Under the pieces are notes generated by a model that had not been told where the DNA came from, did no database searches, and was given only the letters and a program-made list of their open reading frames with translations. Made by a program: the position numbers and the translations under genes. 59,959 nt of DNA from Candidatus Omnitrophota bacterium (lineage in GTDB: Bacteria; Omnitrophota; Omnitrophia; Omnitrophales; Aquincolibacteriaceae), in NCBI GenBank assembly GCA_041666865.1, contig JBAYGD010000016.1, forward strand, positions 1 to 59,959. The letters run 5' to 3'. Shown piece by piece: positions 10,864 through 54,420 of this stretch. Positions within the stretch are counted from its first letter, which is position 1. Each line of letters opens with the position of its first letter.

Positions 10864-10892
10864 TTGCATTCGTGATAAGGGGAGTGTACTAT
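10864..10892 (+). promoter_or_regulatory. candidate promoter: TTGCAT, 17-nt spacer, TACTAT
   Basis: Lies in the AT-rich stretch about 40 nt upstream of the giant ORF start. Confidence 0.3.
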
Positions 10893-10934
10893 TGTTGTGT
10901 ATTAAAGATGTTTATAAAGTACTTAACTGCACTT

Positions 10935-32666: not shown

Positions 32667-32675
32667 ACGATTCCG

Positions 32676-35506: not shown

Positions 35507-35566
35507 AATACACTTTTTTAGCCTTGAAGGCCCTTCTTGGGGCGTTGGAAGACCGGGAGCAATGAG

Positions 35567-37096: not shown

Positions 37097-37098
37097 GC

Positions 37099-37896
37099 AT
37101 GATCAAAGGGAAGAAGATTATCGTGACGATGCCCGCCTATAATGCGGAAGATACGCTGGAGAAGACTTACCGGGAGATCCCGCGGGATGTCGTGGATGAG
37201 GTGATCCTTGTGGATGACGCCAGCAAAGACCGCACCATGGAGGTTGCGGCCAGACTCGGAGTGGATGTGACGATCCAGCACAAAAAAAACCTCGGCTACG
37301 GAGGGAATCAAAAGACCTGTTACACCGAAGCCCTCCGGCGGGGCGCCGACATCGTCATTATGCTTCATCCCGATTACCAATATACGCCCGCTTTGATTGA
37401 GCCGCTTGCATGGCTGATTGCTCATGAGACGTATGATTTTGCCTTCGGCTCGCGCATCCTGGGCAGCAGCACGCTCAGCGGAGGAATGCCGCTTTACAAG
37501 TTTGTGGCCAACCGGACGCTCAGCCTGCTGGAGAACATCGTTCTCTGGCAGCATGTTTCGGAGTATCACTCGGGGTACCGCGCTTTTTCGCGGAGGGTTT
37601 TGGAAACGGTGCCGTTTATGAATAATTCCGACAACTTTGTCTTCGATAACGAAATTCTGGCCCAGGTCTTTTACGCGGGCTTTCGCGTCGGGGAGATTTC
37701 CTGCCCGACGAAGTATTTTCCCGAGGCCTCCTCCATCAGCTTCAAAAATAGCGTGCGCTACGGAATGGGGGTTGTCCGGACCATGCTCAAGTACCGTTTG
37801 AAGTGTATGCGACTTCTGCACCCGAAGATCTTCGCCGGCATGTCGCGCCATATGGCGGCGTCCGAACGCGCCGCGGCTGCAGGTCATGCGGCCTAA
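37099..37896 (+). CDS. GT2 glycosyltransferase, polyprenyl-phosphate sugar synthase-like (CsbB/GtrB/ArnC type)
   Basis: IVTMPAYNAEDTL, VDDASKDRT and the short soluble GT2 architecture. It lies directly upstream of, and overlaps, the YfhO gene. Confidence 0.8.
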   Translation: MIKGKKIIVTMPAYNAEDTLEKTYREIPRDVVDEVILVDDASKDRTMEVAARLGVDVTIQHKKNLGYGGNQKTCYTEALRRGADIVIMLHPDYQYTPALIEPLAWLIAHETYDFAFGSRILGSSTLSGGMPLYKFVANRTLSLLENIVLWQHVSEYHSGYRAFSRRVLETVPFMNNSDNFVFDNEILAQVFYAGFRVGEISCPTKYFPEASSISFKNSVRYGMGVVRTMLKYRLKCMRLLHPKIFAGMSRHMAASERAAAAGHAA

Positions 37897-40270
37897 AAGC
37901 GACCTTCTCAGCCTTTTTGCGATCGCGGTTCTTCTTGCGCTTTTTTATCCCGGCCTTGTGCTCGCTCGCCAGGCGTCCCTCATGGGCGACCACTGGGAAC
38001 AGCACTATCCTTGGGCTTGGACTCTGGCGGATTCTCTGCACCGCGGCCAATGGCCGTTCTGGACGCCGCTGATTCAGTGCGGTTTTCCCCTTGCCGCCGA
38101 AAGCCAGATTGGGATTTTTTATCTTCCCAATTTGATCCTCACTTTATGCTTGCCGATTCAGCCGGCTTACGCCGCCACGAATCTTGTTCACTTTTTTGTC
38201 TCGGGGGCGGGCACTTACTTTTATTCTCGCCGGATCGGTCTCAGGCCGGTCGCGGCGTTTGTGGCCGCCGTTGTTTTTGTCTTCGGAACCGGCTACGGAG
38301 GGGCCTATTACAATTTGACTTCCCTGAAGACACTCGCCTGGTTTCCATGGATTCTCTGGGGGTTTGAGAAGTTTTTGGAGCGGTTCCGGAAGCGCTATCT
38401 TTGCGCGATGGCCGCTTTTATGGGGCAAGCGATCGTGGCCGGGTACCTTCAGGTGGCCGTGCTGATGCTTGCGATTTGCATGGCAGTCTTTTTTTTGAGG
38501 CTATTCATCTTTGCCGATAGTTCCATGGATTGGCGCCGGCGTCTTAAAGGGAGCGCGGGGGTGCTCGCGTCACTGGGCGGCGCCGTTATCCTCGCGCTTC
38601 CTCAGCTTTTGCTGAGCTTTGAGCTAGCCCTGTTTTCGAATCGCATGAATCTGACGGAAGATTACGCCTACGTGGGCTCCATGGCCCCGCCGGTGCTTTT
38701 GACGCTCCTTTTCCCGAAACTGCAGGGACTTTTTCGTGGAAACTGCCTTTATTCCGGGATCTTCACGCTCTACTTTCTGATGGCCGCCTATTTTGCGTCG
38801 CGAAAGGAACTGCGCCGGGTGCTTTGGCTGTGGACCACTGTTTCGCTGCTCGCCCTTGCACTGGCCCTGGGTGGATGGAGCCCTGTCTATATCGCCCTGA
38901 TCAAACTTTCTCACTTTTACGCCTTCCGGATTCCCGCAAAATATCTCATTTTCATCTGCTTCGGGGTGGCCGTTCTCGCAGGCCTTGGAACGCATGTTTG
39001 GTGCGACGAGCTCGTGCTCTCGAAGGAGCGGCTGCGCGTGTTGAACCGAACGTATCTCAAGTTCGCGGCCGCTGCGGTGGCCTTGTGGGGAATTGTCTAT
39101 TTCTTCGTCACCAAGGGACGAAGCGCGGTGTTGCATTTGGGGGAGTGGACGGTTGAACATTTTATCTACGGCAAAAGCGGTCATCCGCGCTCGCTTGACG
39201 AATATTTTTCCGGGGTCTCCGGACTTGCCGATGCCGCAAGGGACATGCTGGCTTTCACCAATCCCTGGCAATTATGGGCCTTGGTGCTGATTTTGATCAG
39301 CTGCCTTTGGGTGATGATGCTTGAGCGTTTTTTGAAGCGGTCTCGCGGAGCGAAGCTGTGCCTGCTTTTTGCTCTCGTCGTTTTGCTCGCCGATTTTTAT
39401 GTTTTTTCAGGAGAAGACATCAAGAAGGATATTGGCCCCTTTCCGGACGGAATGAAAAAAAACGCTGCGGTTGCCATGCTTTTGGCGGAAAAAGGGGCGG
39501 GCCGGATGGGGAGGTTGTATGGCTTCCGGAAATCGAACGAAAATCTGCCGGTAGTGCCCTCGGTGAATATGCTCTACGGCATCGAGGACATCGGCGGATA
39601 CTCGCCTTTTATCCTGGGGAGGTACTTTGAAACGATCGGGCAATTGGGCAACGTCAATGACTCCAACCGGATGATGGATCCGGAAACGTCCTTTGTCCTC
39701 GAGCGGCTGCCCCTTCTCGATGCGCTGGGCGTTTCCCATATTCTTTCCTCTCGTGAGCTCCTCGATCCGTCGCTGGAGCTTTTGATGCGCGACCCCGAAT
39801 CCGGAGCTTATCTTTATCGCAACCGGGAGGATCATCCCCGGGGATATTTCGTCGCGAAGGAGGCCGTTTTTGCGGATTGGAAGGAATTGAAAGAGGCCTT
39901 GATGGGTCCGGGTTTTGATCCGAGAAAAACGCTTCTGCTCGAGAAGGGTGAAAACACAAAAATTTCAGGCCGTCCGCTTCCGGGGAACTCCGCTGCGCGG
40001 GAGGTTGTTTGTGCGCGCCGTGATCCGGATAGGGAAGTTTGGCAGGTCGAAACCACGGGGCCCGGTTTTTTTGTGCTGACCAACACCCATTATCCCGGAT
40101 GGAGCGCGAGGTTGAATGGCGTTGAGGTTCCCTTGCTCAAGGCTTACGGACTATTTCAAGCGCTTGAGCTTCCCGCCGGAGGGAAACATTCCATTGAGTT
40201 GACCTATCGCCCTCTTCGGGGGTTGCTCCGGAAGTGGGCGGGGCGGGGGGATGAACTTGATGCCTTATGA
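37886..40270 (+). CDS. yfhO: YfhO family GT-C membrane glycosyltransferase
   Basis: WTPLIQCGFPLAAESQIGIFYLPN and the C-terminal NTHYPGWSARLNGVEVPLLKAYGLFQALELPAGGKHSIELTYRP are typical of YfhO. Confidence 0.7.
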   Translation: MRPKSDLLSLFAIAVLLALFYPGLVLARQASLMGDHWEQHYPWAWTLADSLHRGQWPFWTPLIQCGFPLAAESQIGIFYLPNLILTLCLPIQPAYAATNLVHFFVSGAGTYFYSRRIGLRPVAAFVAAVVFVFGTGYGGAYYNLTSLKTLAWFPWILWGFEKFLERFRKRYLCAMAAFMGQAIVAGYLQVAVLMLAICMAVFFLRLFIFADSSMDWRRRLKGSAGVLASLGGAVILALPQLLLSFELALFSNRMNLTEDYAYVGSMAPPVLLTLLFPKLQGLFRGNCLYSGIFTLYFLMAAYFASRKELRRVLWLWTTVSLLALALALGGWSPVYIALIKLSHFYAFRIPAKYLIFICFGVAVLAGLGTHVWCDELVLSKERLRVLNRTYLKFAAAAVALWGIVYFFVTKGRSAVLHLGEWTVEHFIYGKSGHPRSLDEYFSGVSGLADAARDMLAFTNPWQLWALVLILISCLWVMMLERFLKRSRGAKLCLLFALVVLLADFYVFSGEDIKKDIGPFPDGMKKNAAVAMLLAEKGAGRMGRLYGFRKSNENLPVVPSVNMLYGIEDIGGYSPFILGRYFETIGQLGNVNDSNRMMDPETSFVLERLPLLDALGVSHILSSRELLDPSLELLMRDPESGAYLYRNREDHPRGYFVAKEAVFADWKELKEALMGPGFDPRKTLLLEKGENTKISGRPLPGNSAAREVVCARRDPDREVWQVETTGPGFFVLTNTHYPGWSARLNGVEVPLLKAYGLFQALELPAGGKHSIELTYRPLRGLLRKWAGRGDELDAL

Positions 40271-42137
40271 CGCCCTTCTGGCGCTGGCCTATTTTGCTCT
40301 GGTATTTCCGGCCTGTTATCTTTTGGGCTCTTGGTTCCGGCCTTTCCTAAAACTTTCGGAGCCCAAGATGGCCGGCGTCGTTTATTTCGGCCTGGGCCTG
40401 GGCCTCTTGGCTTATTTCGTCGTGGTCGCCGGTCACGCGAATGCCCTTCAGCGTCCGGTGCTCTTCGCTTTTCTGGCGGTCCTTTATGCCTTCCGCTGGA
40501 AATCGCTCGGCGATTTTACCGCGTGGATTTCCGAAATATGGTTTTTTCTCACGCGGGGACAAGGAAAGAGCTACCGTTTTTTTTGGGCGGCATTCCTCTT
40601 GACGGCCCTTTTCACTTTGGCGTTATGTTTTGTCCCCGAAACCGCCAATGATTCCCTCTGCTATCAATTGAACCTGCCCAAAGTCTTTGCGAGTCATCAC
40701 TCGACCCGGCCTCTGTTTTACGATCTCAATTCTCAGATGCCCTTTCTGATGCAGCACTTATACGCCGCCGCGCTTGTCCTGGGCAGCGCGTCATTGGCCA
40801 AAATTTTTCATTGGGCGACCGGCGTCTTTCTCTTCCTGGCGGTGTTTTTAGCGATTTTTCAATCCACCCAAAGAAAGCTCCCGGCCCTTTTTTTCGCCCT
40901 GATGCTTTGGCTGACGCCTGCCTGTATTAATGAGGTCACCTCGGCCTATGTCGATGTGGCGGTTGCTTTTTTTCTGTTTATGGCTGTGTGGATGTTCCGG
41001 GAAGGCCTCCGAACCCGGGCTGCAAGCCTTTTTTTCGCCGGCGGTCTCTTCCTCGGGTTTGTCGTCAGCACGAAGCTGATTGCGCTATTATGGGTGGGTG
41101 CCTTTGCGTTTGTCCTGCTGGGGGTTCTTTTCGTTTCATTTCGAAAGCTGCCGCTTGTGAAGATGCTCGGGGTGGGGCTTCTCGGCGGCGTTTTGGGCTG
41201 CGGATTTTGGTTTGTACGGAACTGGATCATCGAGAACAATCCGGTGTTTCCTTATCTGGAGAGCGTGTTCACAGGTCCCTCGCTTGGGCTGGTGGGGTCT
41301 TACACCCGCGTCGGACTCCCCAAGACTTTGGGCAGTTTTCTCCTTTTGCCTTGGAATATCACGTTTCTGCCGGAGGTCTTCGATCGCGGTTTTTGGGTGG
41401 GCCCCTTTTATCTTCTGTCGCTGCCCTTCGCTCTTTGGGGGGCGTGGAAGAGAAGGGAGGCGCGGTTTTGGCTTGCGTTCGTGTTTTGTTCGCTTGTTTT
41501 GTGGTTCTTTGTCGTGCAGAATTCGCGTTTTCTCTTTCCGGTGCTTCCGGCTTACCTTCTTTGCGTCGGAATGGGATATGCCGCCGTCCCGGTTTTTAAA
41601 TCCGGTGTGACGCGATGGCTCAGGATCCCTGCGGCCGGACTTGTCGTTTTTTTTCTCCTGCTGACGGGTTTTCATTATCGTTATCCGGCGAGGGTGCTCG
41701 GCGGGCTATGGACGCCGAGCGAGTATTTGGAGAAAATGGAACGAAGTTATCCGGTCGCCGAGTGGGTGAATCGGCATTTGCCCCCTGACGCCTCTATTTT
41801 TAACTTTGAAGAAGTCCGCCAGTACTACTTCCGCAGGGACATGGTCCGTGAGATTTGGTTTCGCGCGAGAACGCACTACGACCAGAAGGTGGCTCCGGAC
41901 CGATGGCTGAACTACCTGCGTGAAAAGGGATTTACCCACGTTCTGCGGGTTTATTGCCCGGAAAGTCCGCTGGCCGAGAGCGACCGTGTGAGAGAGGACG
42001 CCCTGGACCGGGTTCTGCAAGATCCCGCGCAAGCGACCCGGCTGGTGAGCCTGGAATCCAAAAACATCAAAGAAGCCCGGGAACACTATGACGTTTATGT
42101 CCTCACAGCGTCACCGGCTCAAGGCGGAAAGGGATAG
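40251..42137 (+). CDS. GT-C fold polytopic glycosyltransferase-like membrane protein no. 3
   Basis: More than 10 TM segments, a PETANDSLCYQLNLP loop and a soluble C-terminal domain. Confidence 0.5.
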   Translation: MNLMPYDALLALAYFALVFPACYLLGSWFRPFLKLSEPKMAGVVYFGLGLGLLAYFVVVAGHANALQRPVLFAFLAVLYAFRWKSLGDFTAWISEIWFFLTRGQGKSYRFFWAAFLLTALFTLALCFVPETANDSLCYQLNLPKVFASHHSTRPLFYDLNSQMPFLMQHLYAAALVLGSASLAKIFHWATGVFLFLAVFLAIFQSTQRKLPALFFALMLWLTPACINEVTSAYVDVAVAFFLFMAVWMFREGLRTRAASLFFAGGLFLGFVVSTKLIALLWVGAFAFVLLGVLFVSFRKLPLVKMLGVGLLGGVLGCGFWFVRNWIIENNPVFPYLESVFTGPSLGLVGSYTRVGLPKTLGSFLLLPWNITFLPEVFDRGFWVGPFYLLSLPFALWGAWKRREARFWLAFVFCSLVLWFFVVQNSRFLFPVLPAYLLCVGMGYAAVPVFKSGVTRWLRIPAAGLVVFFLLLTGFHYRYPARVLGGLWTPSEYLEKMERSYPVAEWVNRHLPPDASIFNFEEVRQYYFRRDMVREIWFRARTHYDQKVAPDRWLNYLREKGFTHVLRVYCPESPLAESDRVREDALDRVLQDPAQATRLVSLESKNIKEAREHYDVYVLTASPAQGGKG

Positions 42138-42140
42138 GAC

Positions 42141-43055
42141 ATGCCTGACCAGTGGATGAGGCTTCAGTTTTGCCCCGCGTGCGCGGGAGAAGACCGGCGT
42201 CATTGTTTTGACGTGGCCGGCACCAAACTTTACGAGTGCGCCGGGTGCCATTTGCGTTTCCTGGATCCCTGTTTCTCTCCGGAAACGACGGCGCAAGCCT
42301 ATGAGTCGACTGCCTCCCTGATGGAACTTCACGGCTTCCATGAGGGTTATTACGACTACGGCGACCTTGGCCGCGCGAGTGCCACCAAAAAAGAGTTTGA
42401 GTCCGCTCTCGAGAGGCTTGAAGGGTTTTTAGGTGCGGACCCCGGGAGGAGGCTCTTTGATGTCGGGTACGGGAACGGTTTCTTTTTGGCCCTGGCCCGG
42501 CAAAGGAAGTGGCAGGTCGGGGGAGTCGACACAAGTCTCCATAATCAAAAATTGGCCAAGGCGAAGTTCGGACTCGATCTCGCCGCGGGGACTTTCGAAA
42601 AGGAATGCCGCGGGGCGGATTTTTACGATGCCGTTTCATTTTGGGATGTGCTGGAGCATTTGCCCGATCCGAGCGTTTTGCTGCGGAAAGCGTTTGAAGT
42701 GATCCGGCCCGCGGGGTATGTCCTGATCGGGGTTCCCCATGAGGGGGGCTTTTTGTCCGTTCTCTCGAACGTCCTCTTCCGCTTCACGGGAGGGAGACTC
42801 CGGCAGGGGGTTGATCGCGTGTATTTGCCCGAACATGTGGCCTATTATGCCTTGGGGGCCCTCGACCGGTTACTGGAGCGTAACGGATTCGTGCGAAGGG
42901 GCTTTTTTTACAGCAGTACGGATTTGGCCAAATACAAATTGCCTTTCACGGACAAGCTCCTTGCGCATATGATTTTGATGCTGGGGCGGATTTTTCGCCG
43001 TCCGAACCGGCTGATCGCTTTCTATCAAAAAAAGTCAGGGATGCTCTCGGGTTAG
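42141..43055 (+). CDS. class I SAM-dependent methyltransferase with N-terminal Cys4 ribbon
   Basis: CPACAG...CAGC zinc ribbon, motif I LFDVGYGNGFF and WDVLEHLPDP. Confidence 0.8.
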   Translation: MPDQWMRLQFCPACAGEDRRHCFDVAGTKLYECAGCHLRFLDPCFSPETTAQAYESTASLMELHGFHEGYYDYGDLGRASATKKEFESALERLEGFLGADPGRRLFDVGYGNGFFLALARQRKWQVGGVDTSLHNQKLAKAKFGLDLAAGTFEKECRGADFYDAVSFWDVLEHLPDPSVLLRKAFEVIRPAGYVLIGVPHEGGFLSVLSNVLFRFTGGRLRQGVDRVYLPEHVAYYALGALDRLLERNGFVRRGFFYSSTDLAKYKLPFTDKLLAHMILMLGRIFRRPNRLIAFYQKKSGMLSG

Positions 43056-43064
43056 GATTTTGCC

Positions 43065-43940
43065 ATGATTACGCTGACAAGCCTTGTCTTGATTCTCGCC
43101 TCTGCGATCATCCATCCTCTCTGGAATATGCTCCTTAAGCGCAGCGACGACAAGCTGATCTTCTACACGTATATCCACCTGATTTTTACAGGGCTTTTCA
43201 CCTTTGTCCTCTGGGTGTATCCTCTGGAACAAATCAGCTTCCGGGTATGGGTTTGGGTTGTCCTTTCCGCGGTGACTCATTTTTTTTATCAGGTTTATCT
43301 GTGCAAAGCCTATGACGAGGGCGATTTGTCGTTGACCTATCCGATTATCCGGTCCTCGTCGGTTTTTATCCTCCTGGGCGCGTTTGTCTTTCTCCGGGAG
43401 GTTCCCACCGCCTATGCCTCCCTCGGGGTCCTTCTGATTTTGGCCGGCGTTTGCTTCATCCATCAAAATAGCCTCCGGGGGTTCTCCTTCCGGTCCCTGG
43501 CGAAATCTTTGAAAAGCCGGGCGATGATTTTTGCGGGTCTGACGGCCTTCTTTTCGGCCCTCTATTCCATCGTGGACAAAAAGGCCGTTTTGGAATGTCA
43601 TCCCGTTTTGTTTTTTTATCTTTTCTTCACCCTGTCGGGGCTCTTTTTTCTTGCTTATGTTTTGACGATGAAAGAAAGGCGGGGACGTATGGGCGCGGTG
43701 CTGAAAAAGGATTTCCCCCTCATCACGGCGGCCTCTCTCATGGAATTTATGTCCTACATTCTGATCTTGTACGCCTTCAGGTTGTCGAACACCGCCTATG
43801 TGACGGCCCTTCGACAAATTAGTGTTGTTTTTGGCGTCATATATGGTTTAATGTTTTTAAAAGAACCCTTCGGGAAGGTCCGTTTGGCAAGCGCCCTGGT
43901 GATTTTTCTGGGGGCTTTTTTAATCATTGTCTATGGCTAA
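43065..43940 (+). CDS. EamA/DMT superfamily transporter
   Basis: About 10 TM segments in two duplicated halves, 291 aa. Confidence 0.75.
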   Translation: MITLTSLVLILASAIIHPLWNMLLKRSDDKLIFYTYIHLIFTGLFTFVLWVYPLEQISFRVWVWVVLSAVTHFFYQVYLCKAYDEGDLSLTYPIIRSSSVFILLGAFVFLREVPTAYASLGVLLILAGVCFIHQNSLRGFSFRSLAKSLKSRAMIFAGLTAFFSALYSIVDKKAVLECHPVLFFYLFFTLSGLFFLAYVLTMKERRGRMGAVLKKDFPLITAASLMEFMSYILILYAFRLSNTAYVTALRQISVVFGVIYGLMFLKEPFGKVRLASALVIFLGAFLIIVYG

Positions 43941-43965: not shown

Positions 43966-45162
43966 ATGACGGATAACAAAGATCGCATTACGCTTTTTCC
44001 CGGTATGGCGGGCGTCACCCGGGATATGATCGACCGGCTTAAAAATGAAGGCGTGGAATTATTCTCCGTCGATATCATGGTCACGCAGAGGTGCAACTTC
44101 AAGTGTATTTATTGCTATGCCGACGGCGCTCCGGAGAAGACCAACCAGCTGTCGATGGCGGAGGCCAAGAAGGTCGTCGATGAATGCCTTGAGCTGGGGG
44201 TGCGTGTCGTCAATATTCAGGGAGGGGAGCCGCTGTATTGGCATCCCGGCGACTGGACCGGCGCGCGCGGAGAGGCTTTTTTTCATCTCCTGGAGTATAT
44301 CCGGGGCCTTTTTACGGCCAAGGGCGCCCCCCTGAATCTGTTGAGCTTTACCGACGTGGCGATGATGACGAAGGAGAAAGCGGAGCGTCTGCGCAAGCTC
44401 GAGGTGTCGCTGTGCTGTAAGATGGATACGCTCAACGAGGAAACGCAGGACCGCCTGCTGGGCGTTCCGGGCGGTGCCAAATCGATCAAGCGGGGGTTCC
44501 AGTACCTCCTCGACGCCGGCTACGGCAAGCCCGATGCCCCGCCGCTTTCGACCAATACGGTTGTGACGGTCCTCAACTATGAGGATATTCCGGAGCTTTT
44601 CCGCTGGTCCCGGAGTCATGGATTCAAGCCGTTTGTAATTCCCGTACACGTTCACGGGCGTGCCAAGAATTACAGCTCCCATATGCTCTCCGGCAAAGGG
44701 GGAGGGAGTACTTTGAATTCGGACTCCATCCGGAAGTTATTCGAGCGCTTGGCCGAGATCGACGGCAAGGAGTTCAATATTCATTGGAAGGCGGAGTCGC
44801 CGTGGGTCGAAAACAAGGCTTGTTCCAGGCACCTGGGCGGCATCCATGTCCGCGCGGACGGGGTCGTGGTGCCTTGTTCGGAAGCCCCCGATGAGTGGGC
44901 GCTCGGCCATATCCGGAAAAATTCGCTCAAAGAGATCGTGTTCTCGGACAAGGTGAAGAAATTTAGAACGATTTATTCTCAGCTCCACGATAGCCAGTGC
45001 TCGCCGAGCCGGTGCTCCCTGGCGGCTCAGGAGAAGTGCTACGGCTGCAGGACCCGCGCTTATGACGATTCCGCGTTTGATAAGGACGGCGGGTATGATC
45101 CTGCCCGCTTGAATCCTGACGCCTTTTTCAGCGGCGATCCGGCCTGCTGGCGGGGGCGATAG
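43966..45162 (+). CDS. radical SAM protein with C-terminal SPASM/twitch-like Cys cluster
   Basis: VTQRCNFKCIYCYA (CxxxCxxC) and C-terminal Cys-rich CS...VVPCSE...CSPSRC...CYGC. AAGGTGAGG Shine-Dalgarno upstream. Confidence 0.8.
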   Translation: MTDNKDRITLFPGMAGVTRDMIDRLKNEGVELFSVDIMVTQRCNFKCIYCYADGAPEKTNQLSMAEAKKVVDECLELGVRVVNIQGGEPLYWHPGDWTGARGEAFFHLLEYIRGLFTAKGAPLNLLSFTDVAMMTKEKAERLRKLEVSLCCKMDTLNEETQDRLLGVPGGAKSIKRGFQYLLDAGYGKPDAPPLSTNTVVTVLNYEDIPELFRWSRSHGFKPFVIPVHVHGRAKNYSSHMLSGKGGGSTLNSDSIRKLFERLAEIDGKEFNIHWKAESPWVENKACSRHLGGIHVRADGVVVPCSEAPDEWALGHIRKNSLKEIVFSDKVKKFRTIYSQLHDSQCSPSRCSLAAQEKCYGCRTRAYDDSAFDKDGGYDPARLNPDAFFSGDPACWRGR

Positions 45163-45168
45163 GCCGCG

Positions 45169-46824
45169 ATGATGAAGAAGCCCGTTTGCCTCCGAAAACT
45201 GCTGGGTGAGAAAAAGCTCATCCGGATTGTCGGCGCGCACAACGGCATGACGGCCAAGCTCGTCGAAAATAACGGCTTTGAAGGGGTCTGGGCCTCCGGC
45301 CTCGAAGTGTCCACCTCGCATGCCGTCCCCGACGCCAATATTTTGACGATGACCGACTTCCTCAACGCCTCGGCGGAGATGGCCGACAGCGTCTCGATTC
45401 CCGTGATTTCCGACTGCGATGTGGGGTACGGGAATTCGAACAACGTCATCCGGATGGTGAAGAAATTCGAGGCAGCCGGGATCAGCGCCGTGGTGGTGGA
45501 AGACAAGAAGTTCCCGAAGGTCAATAGCCTCGTCGACGATACCCGCCAGGATTTGGCCCCCATCGCGGAGTTCGTGGGCAAAATCATGGCGGCCCAGAAT
45601 GCCCGCCAATCCAGCGATTTTATGTTCTTCGCCCGCGTCGAAGCCCTCATTGCCGGCTGCGGCATGGAGGAAGCCTTACGGCGCGCAAGCGCCTACCTTG
45701 ACGCCGGCGCCGACGGAATTTTCATCCATTCGAAAGCCAAAGACCCCCGGGAAATCGTTGAGTTTTGTCAGCGGCGCGAAAAGCGCGGTATTTTATTGAT
45801 TTGTCCGACCAAGTATCCTTCCCTGAAGGAAAGCGATATGGTCAAGCTGGGCGTCCATATGGCGATTTATGCCAATCAAGGGATCCGGGCTTCCATCAAA
45901 GCCGTCAATGAGGTGTTGGCCTACATGAGCCTGAACGGCATCGGGAACGTCGATTCGAGGATTGCGCCGCTTTCCGAAGTCTTTGAATTACAGGGAATGC
46001 ACCACATCAAACAGGATGAGGAAAAGTATTTGAAGACGGAGATGGCCGGCGTCAAGGCGGTCATCGTCGCGGCGGGGTCGAGGGTCGACGAGTCCCTGAA
46101 GGAGCTGCTCCGGGACCGGCCGCTGGCGATGCTCGACATCAACGGCAAGAGCTTGATCAAGCGCGACGTGGAATCGCTCAACGCCGTAGGCATTGACGAC
46201 ATCCGCGTCATCGTCGGGCACAAGAAGGAAAGCATGGTGGTCGAGAATGTCAGCCGCATCGAAAATCCGGATTACTCCTCCAAGGGGATCCTTCATTCGG
46301 TATCGCTCGGGGCCGCCAATCCCGGAGAAAAGAACGTGATCGCGTATTCCGACATCCTTTTCGACCCCGAGATCATCGAGGGGCTCCTCAAGAAAAACGA
46401 CGACGTCATGCTGGTGGTCGACAGCAGCTACAAGAAAGTTCACGTCCGCAACAAGAAGCTGGAGCTCGTTTCGGTGGAAAATCCGCGCGTGTCCGGCATC
46501 CGTGCTGTGAACATGTCGCGCACCAAGCGAATCCTCAAGATCGGCAGGGAGCTGAGCGAAGCGGATGCGCATTATGAGTTTGTGGGGTTGGCGTGCTTGA
46601 CCCGCAAGGGAGTGCATTTGCTGGCGCGCGAGTACGAGACGGCCCTCAAGAAATGCGCGCGGAACAAGGCAAAGCTGAAGGCCCTGGAGCAGATTTCGTT
46701 TGCCGATTTCATCCAGGTCCTGATCGACAAGGGGCATCCGGTCCATGCGTACGAGGTGAGCGGTGGTTGGATGGAAGTGCATAATTTCAGCGATTACAAA
46801 CATGCCTGCTCCATCTTCACCTGA
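45169..46824 (+). CDS. pepM: phosphoenolpyruvate mutase fused to a C-terminal nucleotidyltransferase domain
   Basis: Ppm signature EDKKFPKVNS (EDKx5NS, nt 45499-45528) and DCDVGYGN, followed by an NTP-transferase-like domain (VKAVIVAAGSRVDES...LDINGKSLI). Confidence 0.88.
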   Translation: MMKKPVCLRKLLGEKKLIRIVGAHNGMTAKLVENNGFEGVWASGLEVSTSHAVPDANILTMTDFLNASAEMADSVSIPVISDCDVGYGNSNNVIRMVKKFEAAGISAVVVEDKKFPKVNSLVDDTRQDLAPIAEFVGKIMAAQNARQSSDFMFFARVEALIAGCGMEEALRRASAYLDAGADGIFIHSKAKDPREIVEFCQRREKRGILLICPTKYPSLKESDMVKLGVHMAIYANQGIRASIKAVNEVLAYMSLNGIGNVDSRIAPLSEVFELQGMHHIKQDEEKYLKTEMAGVKAVIVAAGSRVDESLKELLRDRPLAMLDINGKSLIKRDVESLNAVGIDDIRVIVGHKKESMVVENVSRIENPDYSSKGILHSVSLGAANPGEKNVIAYSDILFDPEIIEGLLKKNDDVMLVVDSSYKKVHVRNKKLELVSVENPRVSGIRAVNMSRTKRILKIGRELSEADAHYEFVGLACLTRKGVHLLAREYETALKKCARNKAKLKALEQISFADFIQVLIDKGHPVHAYEVSGGWMEVHNFSDYKHACSIFT

Positions 46825-46858
46825 TTCCCGCCCGGCACCCAAGAAAGCGCGCCTATCC

Positions 46859-48001
46859 ATGAAAGCTTCCGAGCTTGTCCGGCTGTTCAAACGCAAGAAG
46901 CTGGGGCCTTTTATCCAGGTCCCTTGCTCGATGCTGTCGTCCTTGATCCGGGACCTCTCGGCCGATCCGGACTGCGAAGTCCTGAACCCGGCCAACGAGG
47001 CCGTTGCGATGGGGATGGCGGCAGGGACTTATCTGGCGACGCAAAAAATTCCGGTGGTCCTCATGCAAAACTCCGGATTATGCAACACTCTCAACGCGCT
47101 AACCTCCCTGCACCAGGTTTATCACTTGCCTGTTTTATTCCTGATTACCTGGCGGGGCATGCGCGGGGCCCAGGATGCGCCGGAGCATCAGGTGATGGGT
47201 GCCAAGCTGAATCAAATCCTTCGGCTGTTCAATATTCCTTATGCTGTCTTGTCACCCAAGAACTATCGTGTGCAGGTGGCGGCGATGATCGCAAAGATGA
47301 AAAAAAGCGGAATGCCCGCTGCCCTCGTCCTTCGCCCCGATGTGATCGACAAAGACACCGGCGAGAGAAAGGCGGGGAAGGCCCCCCAAGAAAAAGCAGT
47401 CCCATCCCTGACGAGAAGCGAGGCGCTCGGGGAGATTTTTTCCGTTTGGGGACGCCGTGCCTGCTACGTCACGACGAACGGGTTCATCTCGCGGGACGCA
47501 TTTCACGCGGCAGGCTCGCAGCCGGGCAAACCTCCCCCGGTCTTTTATATGTTGGGTTCGATGGGGCACGCCTTGCCGCTCGGGCTAGGGCTTTCGCTCT
47601 CCCGTTCAAGAGGCGCCCAGACGGTCGTCATCGACGGAGACGGCGGGGCCCTCATGCACCTGGGCGCGATGGCTTCCGTTCCCGGCACTTGCAAGGGTTC
47701 GAAAAAGAATCTCCTGTATATCGTTCTGGATAACTGCCTTTACGCTTCCACCGGCGGCCAGCCCACGGTTTCTTCCGACGTCCGCTTCCGGACGATCGCC
47801 GAGGCCTGCGGATTTCGCCGTGTTTTCTCCGCGACGGGCAGAGCGGCATTGAAGAGCGTTCTTCTCAAAACCAGGAAGCTGAGGGGTTCTGTTTTTATTC
47901 ATGCCCGCATCTCGGAGGTGAAGAACTGTCCTTCGCCAAGAGTCTCAAGCCGGTTTTCGTGCCAGACGATCAAACAGAATTTTATGGGCGGTCTGACATG
48001 A
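46859..48001 (+). CDS. ppd: phosphonopyruvate decarboxylase (TPP-dependent)
   Basis: N-terminus FIQVPCSMLSSLI and TPP motif VIDGDGGALMHLG...LDNCLYASTGGQ. It follows pepM. Confidence 0.82.
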   Translation: MKASELVRLFKRKKLGPFIQVPCSMLSSLIRDLSADPDCEVLNPANEAVAMGMAAGTYLATQKIPVVLMQNSGLCNTLNALTSLHQVYHLPVLFLITWRGMRGAQDAPEHQVMGAKLNQILRLFNIPYAVLSPKNYRVQVAAMIAKMKKSGMPAALVLRPDVIDKDTGERKAGKAPQEKAVPSLTRSEALGEIFSVWGRRACYVTTNGFISRDAFHAAGSQPGKPPPVFYMLGSMGHALPLGLGLSLSRSRGAQTVVIDGDGGALMHLGAMASVPGTCKGSKKNLLYIVLDNCLYASTGGQPTVSSDVRFRTIAEACGFRRVFSATGRAALKSVLLKTRKLRGSVFIHARISEVKNCPSPRVSSRFSCQTIKQNFMGGLT

Positions 48002-48777
48002 AGGCCATCATCATCGCCGCCGGCAAGGGAAAGCGGTTAAAGCACTACAGCGAGAACCTGCCGAAGTGCCTTCTGCCGGTCGGAGACAAATCGATTTTGG
48101 AATGGCAGATCGAAACGTTGAAGTCGTTTGACATACGGGAGATCAGCATCGTCAAGGGATACCAGGCGGACAAAATCAATTTTCCGGGATTCCGCTATTA
48201 TCTGAACGAACGCTATGAGTTCAACAACATCCTGAACTCCCTGATGTGCGCGAAAGCCGAAGTTTGCGGCGAGGTCCTTATTTCGTATTCAGACATTCTT
48301 TACGGCCGGAGGGTGGTTGAGCGTCTGCTGGCCTCTCCGCACGATATTGCCGTCGTGACCGACGTGGATTGGAAAGAGCAGTATGTGGGCCGGGTCGATC
48401 ACCCCTTGAGCGAGGCTGAAACCGTTTTGCTCGGGGAAGGGGATCGGCTGCTCGAAATCGGAAAGCGGATGCGCCGGAAGGCGGAGGCCAACGGCGAGTT
48501 TATTGGAATGATCAAGCTTTCGGCCCGGGGCGCTGAAACGTTTACGCGCTGTTACGAACAGGCCCGGGAGCGTTTTTGGGGAAAGCCGTTCGTGGCGGCC
48601 GATACTTTCGAAAATGCTTATTTGACCGACATGCTTCAGTTTTTGATCGACGAGGGAGAAACCCTTTACGGGGTTCCGATCGAGGGCGGCTGGCGGGAGA
48701 TCGATACCGTGGCCGACTACGAGAAGGCCTGCCGGGACCTCGGCGCTCAACCGGCCTTATTCGAGGGGCGCTCATGA
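47998..48777 (+). CDS. LicC/PntC-like nucleotidyltransferase (cytidylyltransferase candidate)
   Basis: MKAIIIAAGKGKRL and LPKCLLPV. It has an ATGA overlap with ppd. Confidence 0.78.
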   Translation: MKAIIIAAGKGKRLKHYSENLPKCLLPVGDKSILEWQIETLKSFDIREISIVKGYQADKINFPGFRYYLNERYEFNNILNSLMCAKAEVCGEVLISYSDILYGRRVVERLLASPHDIAVVTDVDWKEQYVGRVDHPLSEAETVLLGEGDRLLEIGKRMRRKAEANGEFIGMIKLSARGAETFTRCYEQARERFWGKPFVAADTFENAYLTDMLQFLIDEGETLYGVPIEGGWREIDTVADYEKACRDLGAQPALFEGRS

Positions 48778-49304
48778 AAAAGGTCAAACGTTTCGGGCGC
48801 AAAAAGATCCACCGGGCGCAGTCTTTCGAAGTCGTTTCCGACAGGGTCCTGTGGCCGAACGGCAAAATCCTGAAGCGGGACCTCGTCCTTCACGGGGGCA
48901 TCAGCGTCATCCTTCCGCTGCTCGACGAGAATCAAATGGTTCTCGTCCGGCAATACCGGTACGGGGCCGATCAAATGCTTTGGGAACTGCCCGCGGGGAC
49001 GATTGCCCGGCGCGAAACGCCGCTTCAGTGCGCCCGGCGGGAAATCGTCGAGGAGGTCGGTTATCGCGCCGGACAGTGGAAGAAAATAGCGGATATTTAC
49101 ACATCGCCGGGTTACAATACGGAAAAAGTTTTTTGTTTTTTGGCTCAAAAGCTGACGCCGGCCGTGCCTCATCCCGAAGACGACGAAATTCTCACCGTAA
49201 AGGTTTTTTCCTGTGACCAGGTGAGAAAAATGGTGCAAAGACGCGTGATTCGGGACGCTAAGAGCCTGCTGGCCCTTTTCTATTTCTGGGAGATGCGCCC
49301 ATGA
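48774..49304 (+). CDS. NUDIX hydrolase
   Basis: NUDIX box GTIARRETPLQCARREIVEEVGY. It has an ATGA overlap upstream. Confidence 0.85.
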   Translation: MKKVKRFGRKKIHRAQSFEVVSDRVLWPNGKILKRDLVLHGGISVILPLLDENQMVLVRQYRYGADQMLWELPAGTIARRETPLQCARREIVEEVGYRAGQWKKIADIYTSPGYNTEKVFCFLAQKLTPAVPHPEDDEILTVKVFSCDQVRKMVQRRVIRDAKSLLALFYFWEMRP

Positions 49305-50011
49305 AAAGCGCGGTCGTCGCGATCGACGGGACGTCCTATGTCGGGAAGAGCACGATTGCCAAATGCCTCGCGATCCTTTTAGGCTATGCCTACATCAATA
49401 CCGGCCACATGTTCCGCGCCGTCGCAAAGCGCTGCCTTGAACATGGCAACGATCTCGCGGACGTTCCCGAGGTGGTCCGGCGCGCCCGCGAACTCGATTT
49501 CGACTTTCCCAAGCAGGGGGAGGGTTTCCGGACCCTCGTCAACGGCGAGGACTGGAGCCAAAAGCTCGACGACTATGGGATCGTCTCCGCGGCTTCGAAG
49601 ATCGCGCCTGTCAGGGAACTGCGGACGATTCTGCTCGAGAAGCAGCGCCAGGTTGCCAAAAAACAGGCTGTGGTGATGGAAGGCCGCGACGTCGGCACGG
49701 TGGTCTTTCCGGACGCGGCCTGGAAGTTTTTTGTGACGGCTTCCCCCGAGGTGCGCGCCAGGCGCATGCGCAAAATGATGTCTCCGGAAGAGCAAAAGAC
49801 CGTGCCGGATTTCAGGACGCTGATTCCAAAAGTCATGGCCCTGGATGACGCGGACAGGAACCGGACCGTGGCGCCGCTCGTCATGGCCGAGGATGCGATC
49901 CTCTACGATAATTCCGACAGCCCCACGGAGATGCAGGACGCGCTGATCCTCCAGTATTATATTCGCCACGCGTCCGAGATCGTTCGGAACTCCGGGGTTC
50001 TGACGAGGTAA
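49301..50011 (+). CDS. cmk: cytidylate kinase
   Basis: AIDGTSYVGKSTIAK, NTGHMFRA and MEGRDVGTVVFPDA. It has an ATGA overlap with the NUDIX gene. Confidence 0.88.
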   Translation: MKSAVVAIDGTSYVGKSTIAKCLAILLGYAYINTGHMFRAVAKRCLEHGNDLADVPEVVRRARELDFDFPKQGEGFRTLVNGEDWSQKLDDYGIVSAASKIAPVRELRTILLEKQRQVAKKQAVVMEGRDVGTVVFPDAAWKFFVTASPEVRARRMRKMMSPEEQKTVPDFRTLIPKVMALDDADRNRTVAPLVMAEDAILYDNSDSPTEMQDALILQYYIRHASEIVRNSGVLTR

Positions 50012-50044
50012 TGATCAAGAAGAGAATATAAATCGTATTTATTT

Positions 50045-50073
50045 TTGACAGCCGTGTCGTTCTCGATTAGCAT
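50045..50073 (+). promoter_or_regulatory. candidate promoter: TTGACA, 17-nt spacer, TAGCAT
   Basis: A perfect -35 box at 50045-50050 in the AT-rich spacer that opens the low-GC islet. Confidence 0.3.
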
Positions 50074-50105
50074 TTTCAGAATAAGGTTTAGTCGCTCTGG
50101 GTGAT

Positions 50106-51020: not shown

Positions 51021-51034
51021 CTAGGAATAGCACT

Positions 51035-52015: not shown

Positions 52016-52058
52016 ATAGTGCGGAGTGACCCAATGCGTTGAACAGGGGGGAGGGGTT

Positions 52059-52940
52059 GTGGAAAGCCTTACGGAACTGAAAACGATTTGTCAGACGACT
52101 GCCCAGCGGGATGTCTCGAATGTCTACATGCGCTATGTCTGCCGGCCGGTCTCGATCCGGATCACCCGGCTCCTCATCCCGACCGCGGTGACGGCGGATC
52201 AGGTGAGCGCCGTGATGATCTTGACGGGCGTCCTTGCCGCGGCGATGTTTTTAACCGGTATTCCCTTTCTTTTTTACCTCGGGATTGCCCTTTTTCAGTT
52301 GTGGTACGTCCTGGATTGCGTCGACGGGGAAGTTGCGCGGTATCGGAATTTTCAGCAATCGAAGGTGGTCACGGTCGAAAAGACGCAGCTTCCCATCACC
52401 GGGGCTTACTGGGACTATCTGAATCATTATATCGTCCACGGCCTGGTGCCGTTTGCGGCGGCGTTCGGGATGGGCGGCGGGGAGGGCCGGGGGGCAGGGT
52501 GGGTTCTGGCCGGTTTTCTGGCCACGATGGGGCAAATCCTTCTGCTTGCGATCCACGATACGAAGTCGCGTTTATTTCTTGGCAAGATCACGCGGCTTTG
52601 TCAGTCGCCACGCGCCGTGACTTGCCCCCAAAAGCCGCCGCCTGAAAGCCAGGCGCGAAAAGTCAAAAAGTGGTCCGCGGCCAAATGGGTCTTCGTGGCC
52701 GTCCATTACACGACGACCTATCCGACTGTCATGAACGTCCTGACCCTTCTTGCCGTGATCGAGCTCGTGACCGGCCGGCCGGTCGCGCGATCGCTGTTTG
52801 TTCTGTATTACGCGGCGGCATCTGCCGGGGTCTTCCTTGTGTTGGCCGCCAAAAACCTGCGCAACTCGGGGCTCGACAAGGAGTTCGACGGGACCTTCGC
52901 GGCGCTCGAGATCCCTTCCGGGAATTCAGCGGCAAAATGA
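52059..52940 (+). CDS. divergent CDP-alcohol phosphatidyltransferase family membrane protein
   Basis: DCVDGEVAR (DxxDGxxAR), then a ~20-residue insertion before GAYWDYLNH (GxxxDxxxH rather than D). The GTG at 52059 is preceded by GGAGGG, and the ORF is open from 52026. Confidence 0.72.
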   Translation: MESLTELKTICQTTAQRDVSNVYMRYVCRPVSIRITRLLIPTAVTADQVSAVMILTGVLAAAMFLTGIPFLFYLGIALFQLWYVLDCVDGEVARYRNFQQSKVVTVEKTQLPITGAYWDYLNHYIVHGLVPFAAAFGMGGGEGRGAGWVLAGFLATMGQILLLAIHDTKSRLFLGKITRLCQSPRAVTCPQKPPPESQARKVKKWSAAKWVFVAVHYTTTYPTVMNVLTLLAVIELVTGRPVARSLFVLYYAAASAGVFLVLAAKNLRNSGLDKEFDGTFAALEIPSGNSAAK

Positions 52941-53662
52941 CGATTCTCGACAAGGTCCTCCGCAAGATTTACGGCGCCACGCTCGGCAGGCACGTAGCCC
53001 TCGACCGGTTTTTCCGCTACCGTGAACCGCACCGTTACTGGAAAGAACGCGGGGGCGAGACCTATTTTGAAGAACAGGAGGCCGTGGCGGACCGGACTGA
53101 ACGAAGCGATTTTATCGGCGGGGAAGTTGCCCTCCTGGATTTTTCATCGATCCTTGAGATCGGCTGCGGCTACGGAAAGCAGCTGCGGAACATTTCGGGC
53201 CGCAAGAGAAGCGTGAGCTTTGGCGGCTGCGACTTTAGCCGGCCTCAGTTACTCAAGGGCTTTCAGTATTTCTCGGCGATGCAAAACCGCGTCGTGGAGG
53301 CGGATGCGGAGCACCTTCCGTTCCGGGACAAGAGCTTCGACCTGGTGATGTCCTCGGCGGTCATCCTCCACAACGAATACCGCAAGGCCCAGCGAATGAT
53401 TTGGGAGATGATCCGGGTCGCTCGAAAATTCCTGGTTCATAATGAAGACACGGACGTGACGTTCTCGCGCTATGGGTATGATATGACGCAAACGTATCAG
53501 GCCATGGATTTCAGGGTCGTGGAGTCTGTCGAAATTCCCTGCGCGCAGAGCCCTGCCGACACGCAGTTTACCGTCGCCGAGATTCCGTCGAGCGCCGGGC
53601 GGCTTCGGCCGCAGGATATTCCTTTGCAGTATCACAAAAAAAGCGCGAAAGCCTGCCGATGA
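52937..53662 (+). CDS. class I SAM-dependent methyltransferase
   Basis: Motif I ILEIGCGYGKQL and LPFRDKSFDLV. It has an ATGA overlap upstream. Confidence 0.75.
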   Translation: MTILDKVLRKIYGATLGRHVALDRFFRYREPHRYWKERGGETYFEEQEAVADRTERSDFIGGEVALLDFSSILEIGCGYGKQLRNISGRKRSVSFGGCDFSRPQLLKGFQYFSAMQNRVVEADAEHLPFRDKSFDLVMSSAVILHNEYRKAQRMIWEMIRVARKFLVHNEDTDVTFSRYGYDMTQTYQAMDFRVVESVEIPCAQSPADTQFTVAEIPSSAGRLRPQDIPLQYHKKSAKACR

Positions 53663-54417
53663 AGCCGATTCTCTTGATTCCCACTTATGATGAAAAGGAG
53701 AACATCACGGACCTGATCCCGGCGATCCGCGGGGAAACCGCCGAATGCCCCGTGGAGATCCTCGTGATCGACAGCGGTTCGCCCGACGGGACGGGGGAGG
53801 CGGTCTCGGGGATTTCCCGACGCGACAACGGCGTCCACCTCCTTCAGCAAAATGCCAAGCTGGGCCTGGGGCGCGCCTATGTGGACGGAATGCAGTGGGC
53901 GCTCGCGCGCGACTACGACGTGATTATCACCATGGATGCCGATTTTTCCCATCATCCTCGCTATATTCCGGAGCTTCTGCGACGGATCAAGGATTGCGAT
54001 CTGGTCATCGGATCACGTTATATTCCTGGGGGGGAACTGCGTGATTGGCCGCGTTCCAGGCGCCTCTTGAGCCGCTTTGCTAACGCCTATGCCAAAAAAA
54101 TTACGGGTCTCCCGTTTTCGGATCTGACGGCGGGCTTCCAATGCTTCCGCTCGGATTTGTTACGGAAAGTGATCCGCTACCCTTTGCATGCGGACGGGTA
54201 TGCTTTTCTGATTTCACTGAAGTTTTGGTCGGTCGTGCAGGAGGCCCGGTTCGCGGAGATCCCCATAATTTTTACGGACCGCACGAAGGGCACGACAAAA
54301 ATCTCGCACCGGGTCATTTTTGAATCGATTGTCTTCGTGTGGAAATGCTTCTTTCAGCGCCACCGCTTTTCAAAGCGCCCGAAACCTGTAAACGGGAAAC
54401 CGGATGAAAGGGGCTGA
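53659..54417 (+). CDS. polyprenol-phosphate mannose/hexose synthase (Dpm1/Ppm1-like GT2)
   Basis: LLIPTYDEKENI, VIDSGSPDGT, MDADFSHHP and IGSRYIPGG. It has an ATGA overlap upstream. Confidence 0.85.
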   Translation: MKPILLIPTYDEKENITDLIPAIRGETAECPVEILVIDSGSPDGTGEAVSGISRRDNGVHLLQQNAKLGLGRAYVDGMQWALARDYDVIITMDADFSHHPRYIPELLRRIKDCDLVIGSRYIPGGELRDWPRSRRLLSRFANAYAKKITGLPFSDLTAGFQCFRSDLLRKVIRYPLHADGYAFLISLKFWSVVQEARFAEIPIIFTDRTKGTTKISHRVIFESIVFVWKCFFQRHRFSKRPKPVNGKPDERG

Positions 54418-54420
54418 AAC

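Follow-up and report, generated by a model that had tools for sequence, protein, structure and literature searches.

Phosphonates are a rich source of bioactive compounds and make up a significant share of the marine and sediment phosphorus pool. To our knowledge, all characterised pathways leave phosphonoacetaldehyde (PnAA) through a handful of enzymes, namely the 2-aminoethylphosphonate (AEP) transaminase AEPT, an iron-containing alcohol dehydrogenase (Fe-ADH) and PhnY. Here we describe a locus of a Candidatus Omnitrophota bacterium (contig JBAYGD010000016.1 of assembly GCA_041666865.1) in which genes for a phosphoenolpyruvate (PEP) mutase (Ppm) fused to a nucleotidyltransferase (NTase)-like domain (Ppm-NT) and for a predicted phosphonopyruvate decarboxylase (Ppd) lie next to a gene for a radical S-adenosylmethionine (SAM) enzyme with a SPASM domain. 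The stretch analysed, hereafter the window, spans the contig in full (59,959 bp), and the absence of genes holds for this span only. On balance, and with modest confidence, we read the locus as the core of a cell-envelope phosphonate-tailoring system in which the radical SAM enzyme, and not AEPT or Fe-ADH, most likely stands at the missing step.

The Pnt clusters of Atopobium rimae, Olsenella uli and Treponema denticola (PMC6697681) share with the window a Ppm fused to a PF12804 domain, a separate LicC-like PntC one or two genes away, a Ppd, cell-surface glycan surroundings and activation with cytidine monophosphate (CMP), which is predicted here. They differ in that they encode AEPT (fused to PntC in T. 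denticola) and make CMP-AEP, whereas no AEPT is present here; the window in turn adds the radical SAM/SPASM enzyme, an EamA permease, a NUDIX hydrolase, the cytidylate kinase Cmk and a CDP-alcohol phosphotransferase. In the survey of Rice et al. 2019 (PMC6697681), 59.5% of Ppm were fused, 33% to PF12804, and clusters with an extra NTase were shown. Both the fusion and the second NTase, on which a preliminary description of this DNA had laid emphasis, are therefore documented and common. The PntC enzymes characterised so far are canonical and not fused to Ppm, and the activity of Ppm-fused domains was neither tested nor discussed in that work (PMC6697681).

Fosfomycin biosynthesis in Streptomyces (Fom1, Fom2, FomC, Fom3 and FomD; PMC6697681 and general knowledge) is alike in its Ppm-NTase fusion, its Ppd, its B12-binding radical SAM genes, a dedicated CMP-removing hydrolase and, as proposed here, a CMP-linked C2 phosphonate as radical SAM substrate. 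However, the cytidylyltransferase domain of Fom1 is N-terminal and belongs to PF01467, whereas the fused domain of the window is C-terminal, belongs to PF12804, has no PF01467 match and is without the catalytic Arg and Lys. Furthermore, FomC (an Fe-ADH) is absent, the ppm-adjacent radical SAM enzyme has a SPASM and no B12 domain, the hydrolase is of the NUDIX family instead of DUF402, and the setting is envelope glycosylation and not an antibiotic pathway.

Li and Horsman 2022 (PMC8942020) reported that about 13% of ppm neighbourhoods are without all seven known branch-point enzymes ('post-Ppd other'). They also gave a one-line description of a Campylobacter family (GCF 385) with 'radical SAM and adenylsulfate kinase', which by that description resembles the present type of locus: ppm-ppd without the seven branch-point enzymes, a flanking radical SAM gene and, in the related locus L006, an adenylylsulfate (APS) kinase. 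Apart from this one sentence of PMC8942020, full-text literature searches turned up no paper on SPASM-type radical SAM enzymes of ppm clusters. The cluster falls in a catalogued but unexplained class and is not a categorically new system. What appears to be new is the module of radical SAM/SPASM, EamA, Ppm-NT, Ppd and NTase genes that excludes AEPT and Fe-ADH, together with the loss of Arg and Lys from the Ppm-fused domain. The cluster may make a new phosphonate and is a good lead for genome mining.

The core of the locus consists of the following features (Pfam or NCBIfam matches with E-values in brackets).

43065..43940, + strand: EamA/DMT permease (PF00892 EamA, 1.8e-22)
43966..45162, + strand: radical SAM/SPASM enzyme, A-type (PF04055 and PF13186)
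45169..46038, + strand: Ppm domain of the fusion protein, residues 1-290 (PF13714, 9.4e-52)
46039..46824, + strand: LicC/PntC-fold C-terminal domain of the fusion protein, non-canonical (PF12804, 2e-08)
46859..48001, + strand: Ppd (TIGR03297, 7.5e-88; TPP_enzyme_N/C)
47998..48777, + strand: stand-alone canonical LicC/PntC-like NTase (PF12804, 5.1e-13; PF00483, 9.8e-09)

The open reading frame (ORF) at 45169-46824 (+) has 551 codons with 0 internal stops and continues, as described earlier, into an NTase-like domain (residues 296-545). The EDKx5NS signature that had led to its N-terminal domain being called Ppm was confirmed (EDKKFPKVNS, residues 111-120, nt 45499-45528), and its E, D, K, N and S were invariant in 120 of 120 fused homologues; in an alignment, this Asn corresponds to Thr in the structure of the hydrolase PphA (2dua). 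PF13714 PEP_mutase covers residues 8-250 (9.4e-52), indicating membership of the superfamily. The top model was TIGR02320 (residues 8-277), with 297.9 bits against a cut-off of 319.55, followed by the models for phosphonopyruvate hydrolase (282.3 bits), prpB (methylisocitrate lyase, 159.9 bits) and carboxy-PEP (CPEP) mutase (94.7 bits). The closest match in the PDB was Ppm 5unc (2.9e-84). Judged by its sequence, the N-terminal domain is very probably a genuine PEP mutase.

Among 5.8 billion proteins searched, there were more than 120 full-length fused homologues (about 550 aa, at least 49% identity), nearly all of them with a precomputed PF13714 and PF12804 architecture; they stem from Omnitrophota, Phycisphaerae, Deltaproteobacteria, Nanoarchaeota and numerous metagenomes. 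Because these come from independent assemblies, and no internal stop was found, we rejected an assembly artefact; the preliminary description had considered one, with a stop codon near position 46000, as well as an N-terminal domain outside Ppm. It is very improbable that the fusion is artefactual or that the N-terminal domain is a phosphonopyruvate hydrolase or methylisocitrate lyase, so that no phosphonate would be made. The hydrolase model does come close to the Ppm model (282 and 298 bits, both under their cut-offs), but the number of fused homologues, the invariant motif with Thr for Asn in 2dua, the far lower prpB and CPEP mutase scores and a Ppd in the adjacent position in all loci speak against it.

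The Ppd ORF spans 46763-48001 with a probable ATG at 46859. It contains PF02776 and PF02775, scored 295 bits with TIGR03297 (cut-off 312.5) and 101 bits with the runner-up, sulfopyruvate decarboxylase. The earlier identification of this thiamine pyrophosphate (TPP) enzyme as Ppd from a GDG...N motif agrees with this top model and with the TPP motif GDG-x27-LDN found at nt 47636-47737. In all related loci compared, Ppd directly followed Ppm-NT. Together Ppm and Ppd would convert PEP through phosphonopyruvate to PnAA.

Pfam scans of 44 + strand ORFs, which are every substantial + strand ORF of the contig, revealed no AEPT-type enzyme and no Fe-ADH (PF00465). The single PF00266 match was glycine dehydrogenase subunit 2 (GcvP2, 5855-7423), within the gcv operon. 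In addition, we used probes for Fe-ADH, zinc alcohol dehydrogenase (Zn-ADH) and class-III and class-V aminotransferases, taken from related clusters and verified by Pfam. Six class-V AEPT probes, run by tblastn on the window and on 10 module-bearing loci with 10 kb on either side, matched NTase domains only. By blastp against the ORF translations, the Fe-ADH and Zn-ADH probes found nothing in the window, and Fe-ADH probes from loci L091 and L092 found nothing in the window or in loci with the A-type radical SAM gene. Taken together, no AEPT, Fe-ADH, Zn-ADH or class-III aminotransferase was detected in the window or within 10 kb on either side in the 10 module-bearing loci. These searches bear out the earlier observation that a class-V aminotransferase and an iron alcohol dehydrogenase are lacking; with both branch-point enzymes absent from the cluster, the question then raised about the head group was rightly posed.

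The preliminary description covered the genes from Ppm-NT to the stand-alone NTase and left outside those that bear most on its own question, namely the genes for the radical SAM enzyme and EamA upstream, and those for NUDIX, Cmk and the phosphotransferase downstream. The order [NTase]-EamA-radical SAM/SPASM-PpmNT-Ppd was colinear in eight loci, from the lineage of the window, two other Omnitrophota, Phycisphaerae, Chloroflexi, Dehalococcoidia and Deltaproteobacteria. In 8 of 8 related loci the gene next upstream of that for the radical SAM enzyme was EamA, and in every locus read the radical SAM gene immediately preceded Ppm-NT. The radical SAM enzyme was the best conserved member of the module across phyla. 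Identities to the proteins of the window were 65-80% for the radical SAM enzyme, 54-86% for Ppm-NT, 46-69% for Ppd, 53-82% for EamA and 41-78% for the NTase over all eight loci, and 65-71%, 54-63%, 46-51%, 53-56% and 41-52%, respectively, in the loci from other lineages (L005-L008 and L011).

The family of this radical SAM enzyme is small and sharply delimited: about 77 clusters share 54% identity or more, only two lie near 40%, and the next group is about 30% identical. One of the 40%-identical proteins is again encoded directly upstream of PpmNT-Ppd. Among GTDB species representatives only four orthologues were found, the next match being 31% identical. The match lists of Ppm-NT and the radical SAM enzyme had at least 15 apparent contigs in common. 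EamA matched TIGR03340 phn_DUF6 ('phosphonate utilization associated') with 7.6e-40, below the cut-off.

In 59 radical SAM sequences, C43, C47 and C50 of the CNFKCIYC motif and seven SPASM cysteines (C286, C304, C345, C350, C358, C361 and C394) were invariant. In Foldseek searches with an AlphaFold2 model (pLDDT 82.9, pTM 0.87), anSME was the best match (TM 0.62-0.68); SkfB, CteB, SuiB, BlsE, viperin and MoaA were matched as well. The fold is thus of a generic SPASM kind, has two auxiliary clusters and shows no close functional analogue. The group at about 30% identity was rejected as a guide to function; the two members inspected lie in ketosynthase/aryl-polyene-like lipid clusters.

From its sequence and position, the radical SAM enzyme (43966-45162) is the best candidate for the missing PnAA-level step. 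In the proposed pathway Ppm would convert PEP to phosphonopyruvate and Ppd would convert this to PnAA, after which the radical SAM enzyme, inherited together with the EamA permease, would take PnAA or a CMP-linked C2 phosphonate as its substrate. Three reactions are plausible: a dehydrogenation of the anSME/BtrN type, for example of PnAA hydrate to phosphonoacetate; C-H activation alpha to the phosphorus, followed by C-S or C-C coupling; or, by analogy with Fom3, action on a CMP-linked C2 phosphonate. Only tentatively do we extend this to a more specific proposal, in which the A-type enzyme would be an unrecognised, oxygen-independent early branch-point enzyme that makes a head group distinct from AEP and hydroxyethylphosphonate (HEP) out of PnAA or its CMP conjugate. 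EamA would then handle the product, the phosphotransferase would install it, and the fused domain would be a repurposed nucleotide-binding module. From what is generally known of these groups, the lineages that bear the module are probably mostly anaerobic. If the proposal is true, Omnitrophota, Dehalococcoidia and further uncultured lineages would display a new C-P head group on their surface, and the radical SAM family would gain a new type of reaction.

More distant relatives of the fused Ppm were collected as 80 metagenome loci with 35-52% identity among the matches listed. Class-V AEPT was present in 18 of these 80 listed loci, often directly after Ppd or as an NTase-AEPT fusion like Tde1415, and Fe-ADH in 15; in 47, many of them short contigs, no branch-point enzyme was detectable. 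The A-type radical SAM gene occurred in none of the 80 listed loci. Their only EamA match was in L115, a 2.7-kb contig on which a partial EamA homologue directly precedes PpmNT (47% identity) with no radical SAM gene between. L091 (52% identity) has the order Sulfatase-PpmNT-Ppd-FeADH-NTase-NUDIX. Three loci (L108, L109 and L167) encode a B-type radical SAM/SPASM enzyme, 34% identical to that of the window and sister to the A-type in a neighbour-joining tree. It lies within PpmNT-Ppd-FeADH-rSAM-NTase clusters; unlike the window, these loci carry Fe-ADH, and L109 looks Campylobacter-type. Because the B-type sister also sits in PpmNT-Ppd clusters, the whole A and B clade appears to be phosphonate-associated. 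APS kinase and sulfotransferase genes follow the B-type module in L109 (8001-16166) and occur with the A-type module in L006 (8787-14653), which hints at a sulfated phosphonate or glycan.

The co-occurrence of the B-type enzyme with Fe-ADH implies action after the formation of HEP, and this is one of the points in favour of an ordinary CMP-AEP or CMP-HEP pathway, with the transaminase or reductase encoded elsewhere or recruited from housekeeping, and with the radical SAM enzyme and EamA in later tailoring or transport. The stand-alone NTase is LicC/PntC-like, the B12-binding radical SAM genes of the locus recall Fom3, which acts on CMP-HEP, and just 60 kb of the genome is in view. We regard such a pathway as possible but rather doubtful, since neither AEPT nor an alcohol dehydrogenase occurs within 10 kb on either side in 10 module-bearing loci from several phyla, AEPT and Fe-ADH sit directly beside Ppd in the more distant relatives, and PnAA-processing genes are usually clustered with ppm (PMC8942020).

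The last two genes of the window provide a different candidate for the use of PnAA.

58477-59661: short-chain dehydrogenase/reductase (SDR), GalE/4,6-dehydratase-like, next to the DegT gene
59649-59957: DegT/DnrJ/EryC1 aminotransferase, start only, cut by the contig end

The DegT protein was considered as an AEPT and rejected; it belongs to the DegT/DnrJ/EryC1 family, has an SDR neighbour and lies outside the conserved core. By family and context the two form a predicted sugar-nucleotide pair, with DegT as a sugar aminotransferase. In L003 and L004 such a pair likewise comes after the cluster, and it is absent from L005-L008, L011 and L088. PnAA could be consumed without a branch-point enzyme, for instance if it were coupled reductively to an amino sugar or amine made by SDR and DegT, while the radical SAM enzyme would have no part in C-P chemistry and serve in glycan or protein maturation. 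Its best structural neighbours are indeed peptide-modifying SPASM enzymes, and an amination independent of AEPT was proposed for N-hydroxyethyl-AEP of Fibrobacter (PMC8942020). We consider this unlikely. The DegT-SDR pair is not found in the six loci just named and is no part of the five-gene core, no imine reductase is evident, and a precursor peptide or sulfatase is absent from the window in the Pfam scans. Moreover, in every lineage ppm has the radical SAM gene as its immediate neighbour, and the clade of this enzyme occurs in ppm clusters only.

The two NTase domains proved to be of different kinds. The fused domain (residues 296-545) matches NTP_transf_3 and NTP_transferase (PF12804, 35 bits, above the 27-bit cut-off), and its structural relatives are LicC (1jyk, 8.3e-06) and PntC (6pd1, 2.1e-04). 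The stand-alone NTase has LicC as its best PDB match (1jyk, 1.2e-13). The loops are as reported earlier, atypical in the fused domain (VAAGSRVDES, nt 46066-46095) and canonical in the stand-alone enzyme (IIAAGKGKRL, nt 48010-48039). Alignment with stand-alone NTases and LicC showed that fused domains generally have a variable loop of 4-6 residues, whereas the stand-alone enzymes as a group retain AAGxGxR[LM], PK, YSD and EID; in that of the window the motifs are complete (AAGKGKRL, LPKCLL, YSDI and EIDT). For this NTase there was, in addition, a weak match to the Sden_1164 family.

The positions of the catalytic Arg and Lys were set by HMMER alignments to LicC, ST0452 and Tde-PntC and counted over 120 fused homologues. 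In the fused domain, Ser309 takes the place of the Arg of GxGxR (Ser in 111/120 homologues) and Leu319 that of the Lys of PK (Leu, Val or Ile in 115/120). All 120 retain D395 and E536 at the metal-ligand positions, and D323, R332, D412, D418, R445 and E470 are invariant or nearly so (117-120/120). A change from EID to EVH was considered as the loss of a metal ligand and rejected, as E536 is retained in comparison with ST0452 and LicC. The fused domain appears to be a conserved, functional-looking, non-canonical paralogue, neither a decaying copy nor a standard cytidylyltransferase. Because its catalytic Arg and Lys, the residues for binding the NTP phosphates, are replaced, it should not be classed as a canonical PntC; it probably binds a nucleotide conjugate or a partner for regulation or channelling, and would not carry out standard cytidylyl transfer. 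The loss of both residues from the fused domain also makes the stand-alone NTase the likely cytidylyltransferase. Hence, two NTases are present, the reason for which the preliminary description had asked, but they are not redundant, one having lost Arg and Lys and the other being canonical. The published figure of about 60% NTase-fused Ppm needs care, as many of these fusions may not be cytidylyltransferases.

Downstream of the core and around it, the following features were found.

48774..49304, + strand: NUDIX hydrolase, NudE/ADP-ribose pyrophosphatase-like (PF00293, 7.5e-19; NudE NF008736, 1.7e-23)
49301..50011, + strand: cytidylate kinase Cmk (TIGR00017, 4.5e-53, above cut-off)
52026..52940, + strand: CDP-alcohol phosphotransferase-family membrane protein, 304 aa (6-homologue profile against AF2299)
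52937..56058, + strand: SAM methyltransferase, glycosyltransferase family 2 (GT2) polyprenyl-phosphate glycosyltransferase-like protein and C-fold glycosyltransferase (GT-C, PMT_2) (Pfam)
56055..58088, + strand: second B12-binding radical SAM protein (PF02310 and PF04055)
35537..37096, + strand: B12-binding radical SAM protein, class B methyltransferase-like (PF02310 and PF04055)
30921..43055, + strand: three GT-C proteins, SGNH, GT2, YfhO-like protein and methyltransferase, the upstream envelope-glycosylation genes (Pfam)

NUDIX and Cmk follow the NTase and are kept in that position in L001 and L003, with synteny also in L004; NUDIX adjoins the NTase in the Fe-ADH-type locus L091 as well. For the phosphotransferase, a single-sequence Pfam match remained under the cut-off, and a profile of six homologues, which include those of L001, L003, L007 and L092, matched AF2299 (4o6m) with 3.9e-25. 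The signature D97xxD100G101xxA104R105...G126xxxD130 was invariant in the six aligned sequences. The final signature Asp of CDP-alcohol phosphotransferases is the proposed catalytic base; it was His in five of the six. In the lineage of the window, about 12 residues are inserted after the AR motif. Kennedy-type and IPCT/DIPPS pairs (AF2299, 4o6m; IPCT-DIPPS, 4mnd) are alike in combining a cytidylyltransferase with a membrane phosphotransferase with DxxDGxxAR...GxxxD. In contrast to these pairs, the genes are separate here, the predicted donor is a CMP-phosphonate and not a CDP-alcohol, and the last signature Asp is mostly His.

The protein encoded at 52026-52940 is the likely head-group transferase, and the NUDIX protein a candidate CMP-phosphonate hydrolase. 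In the proposed pathway, the stand-alone NTase would convert the final phosphonate to its CMP conjugate, and the phosphotransferase would transfer the phosphonyl head group to a hydroxyl of a lipid or lipid-linked glycan with release of CMP. Cmk would recycle the CMP, NUDIX would hydrolyse surplus or wrong CMP conjugates by analogy with FomD, and the B12-binding radical SAM enzymes and SAM methyltransferases of the locus would add further tailoring. The CMP part of the scheme draws on Kennedy-type and LicC/LicD logic and on FomD in fosfomycin biosynthesis.

Several points weigh against a radical SAM enzyme at the PnAA branch point. The role of its clade is predicted from sequence and context, and an assignment of function from structure was rejected, as Foldseek gave generic SPASM/twitch enzymes only, with TM about 0.6. 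Since the B-type enzyme occurs with Fe-ADH, the reduction may precede the radical SAM step instead of being replaced by it; if so, the PnAA-reducing or aminating step remains unaccounted for here. An AEPT or alcohol dehydrogenase may be encoded unlinked to the 60-kb contig. Both Ppm and Ppd score somewhat under the NCBIfam equivalog cut-offs. The loss of Arg and Lys is no proof that the fused domain is inactive, as the invariant R332 and R445 could compensate. Finally, Cmk may simply be a housekeeping gene.

The first 30 kb of the window are filled with housekeeping genes (gcvT/P, uvrD, trpBA, rpe, lepA and lepB). Homologues of LepA assign the contig to Candidatus Omnitrophota; the members of the cluster gave no information on the taxon. 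Between uvrD and an acyltransferase gene lies an ORF of 1472 aa (10872-15290) with no Pfam match at E<=0.001. By Pfam scans, the envelope-glycosylation locus begins at about 30.9 kb and runs on downstream. Its upstream block (30921-43055) is largely colinear in L001, and the methyltransferase, GT2 and GT-C genes at 52937-56058, of which the GT2 resembles AglJ, PpgS and ArnC, are colinear in L001 and L003. The surrounding glycosyltransferase, membrane protein, methyltransferase and B12-binding radical SAM genes suggest that the product is destined for envelope glycosylation at the periplasmic face. The density of GT-C-fold/YfhO-like membrane proteins is unusual, with five in about 25 kb (30921, 33452, 37886, 40251 and 54421), and two GtrB/DPM1-like GT2 genes (polyprenyl-phosphate glycosyltransferase-like) lie within 30921-56058. 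With its DegT, SDR, ArnC-like GT2, ArnT-like GT-C and deacetylase genes, the locus resembles an Arn-type aminosugar modification system.

For the B12-binding radical SAM protein at 35537-37096, which is conserved in L001, the top NCBIfam match was ApyD, followed by the Sden_1168 P-methyltransferase (135 bits, 2.5e-39); PhpK scored 83 bits (1.6e-23), and all matches were far below the cut-offs. The weak matches to Sden_1168 and Sden_1164 hint at a possible relation of the locus to a phosphinate cluster of the Shewanella type. The second such protein (56055-58088) matched the KedN5 C-methyltransferase subfamily (2.5e-28, below the cut-off).

Between cmk and the phosphotransferase gene lies an island of low G + C content (50012-52025; 0.389, compared to about 0.56 and 0.54 in the flanks), which contains genes for a SAM methyltransferase (50106-51020) and a polysaccharide deacetylase (51035-52015). 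Because cmk and the phosphotransferase gene are adjacent in L001 and L003, the island looks like a recent horizontal insertion.

Two further groups emerged from the search for fused relatives. In about 22 of the listed metagenome relatives (including L137, L149, L150, L157 and L162; 36-39% identity), EDN...CS replaces EDK...NS. By the motif rule these are not Ppm, and they appear to form a distinct family of isocitrate lyase (ICL)-superfamily-NTase fusions. Lys was present at the PK position in 28 of 72 listed metagenome sequences, including all five EDN...CS examples inspected. Locus L092 (Nanoarchaeota, GCA_016782615.1, 8001-17359) contains a fused Ppm-NT and no Ppd. Its neighbours encode Zn-ADH, aspartate-semialdehyde dehydrogenase, 2-hydroxyacid dehydrogenase, Fe-ADH, phosphoglycerate kinase and an NTase-class III aminotransferase fusion, a gene content that suggests a pre-Ppd, valinophos-like context in an archaeon.

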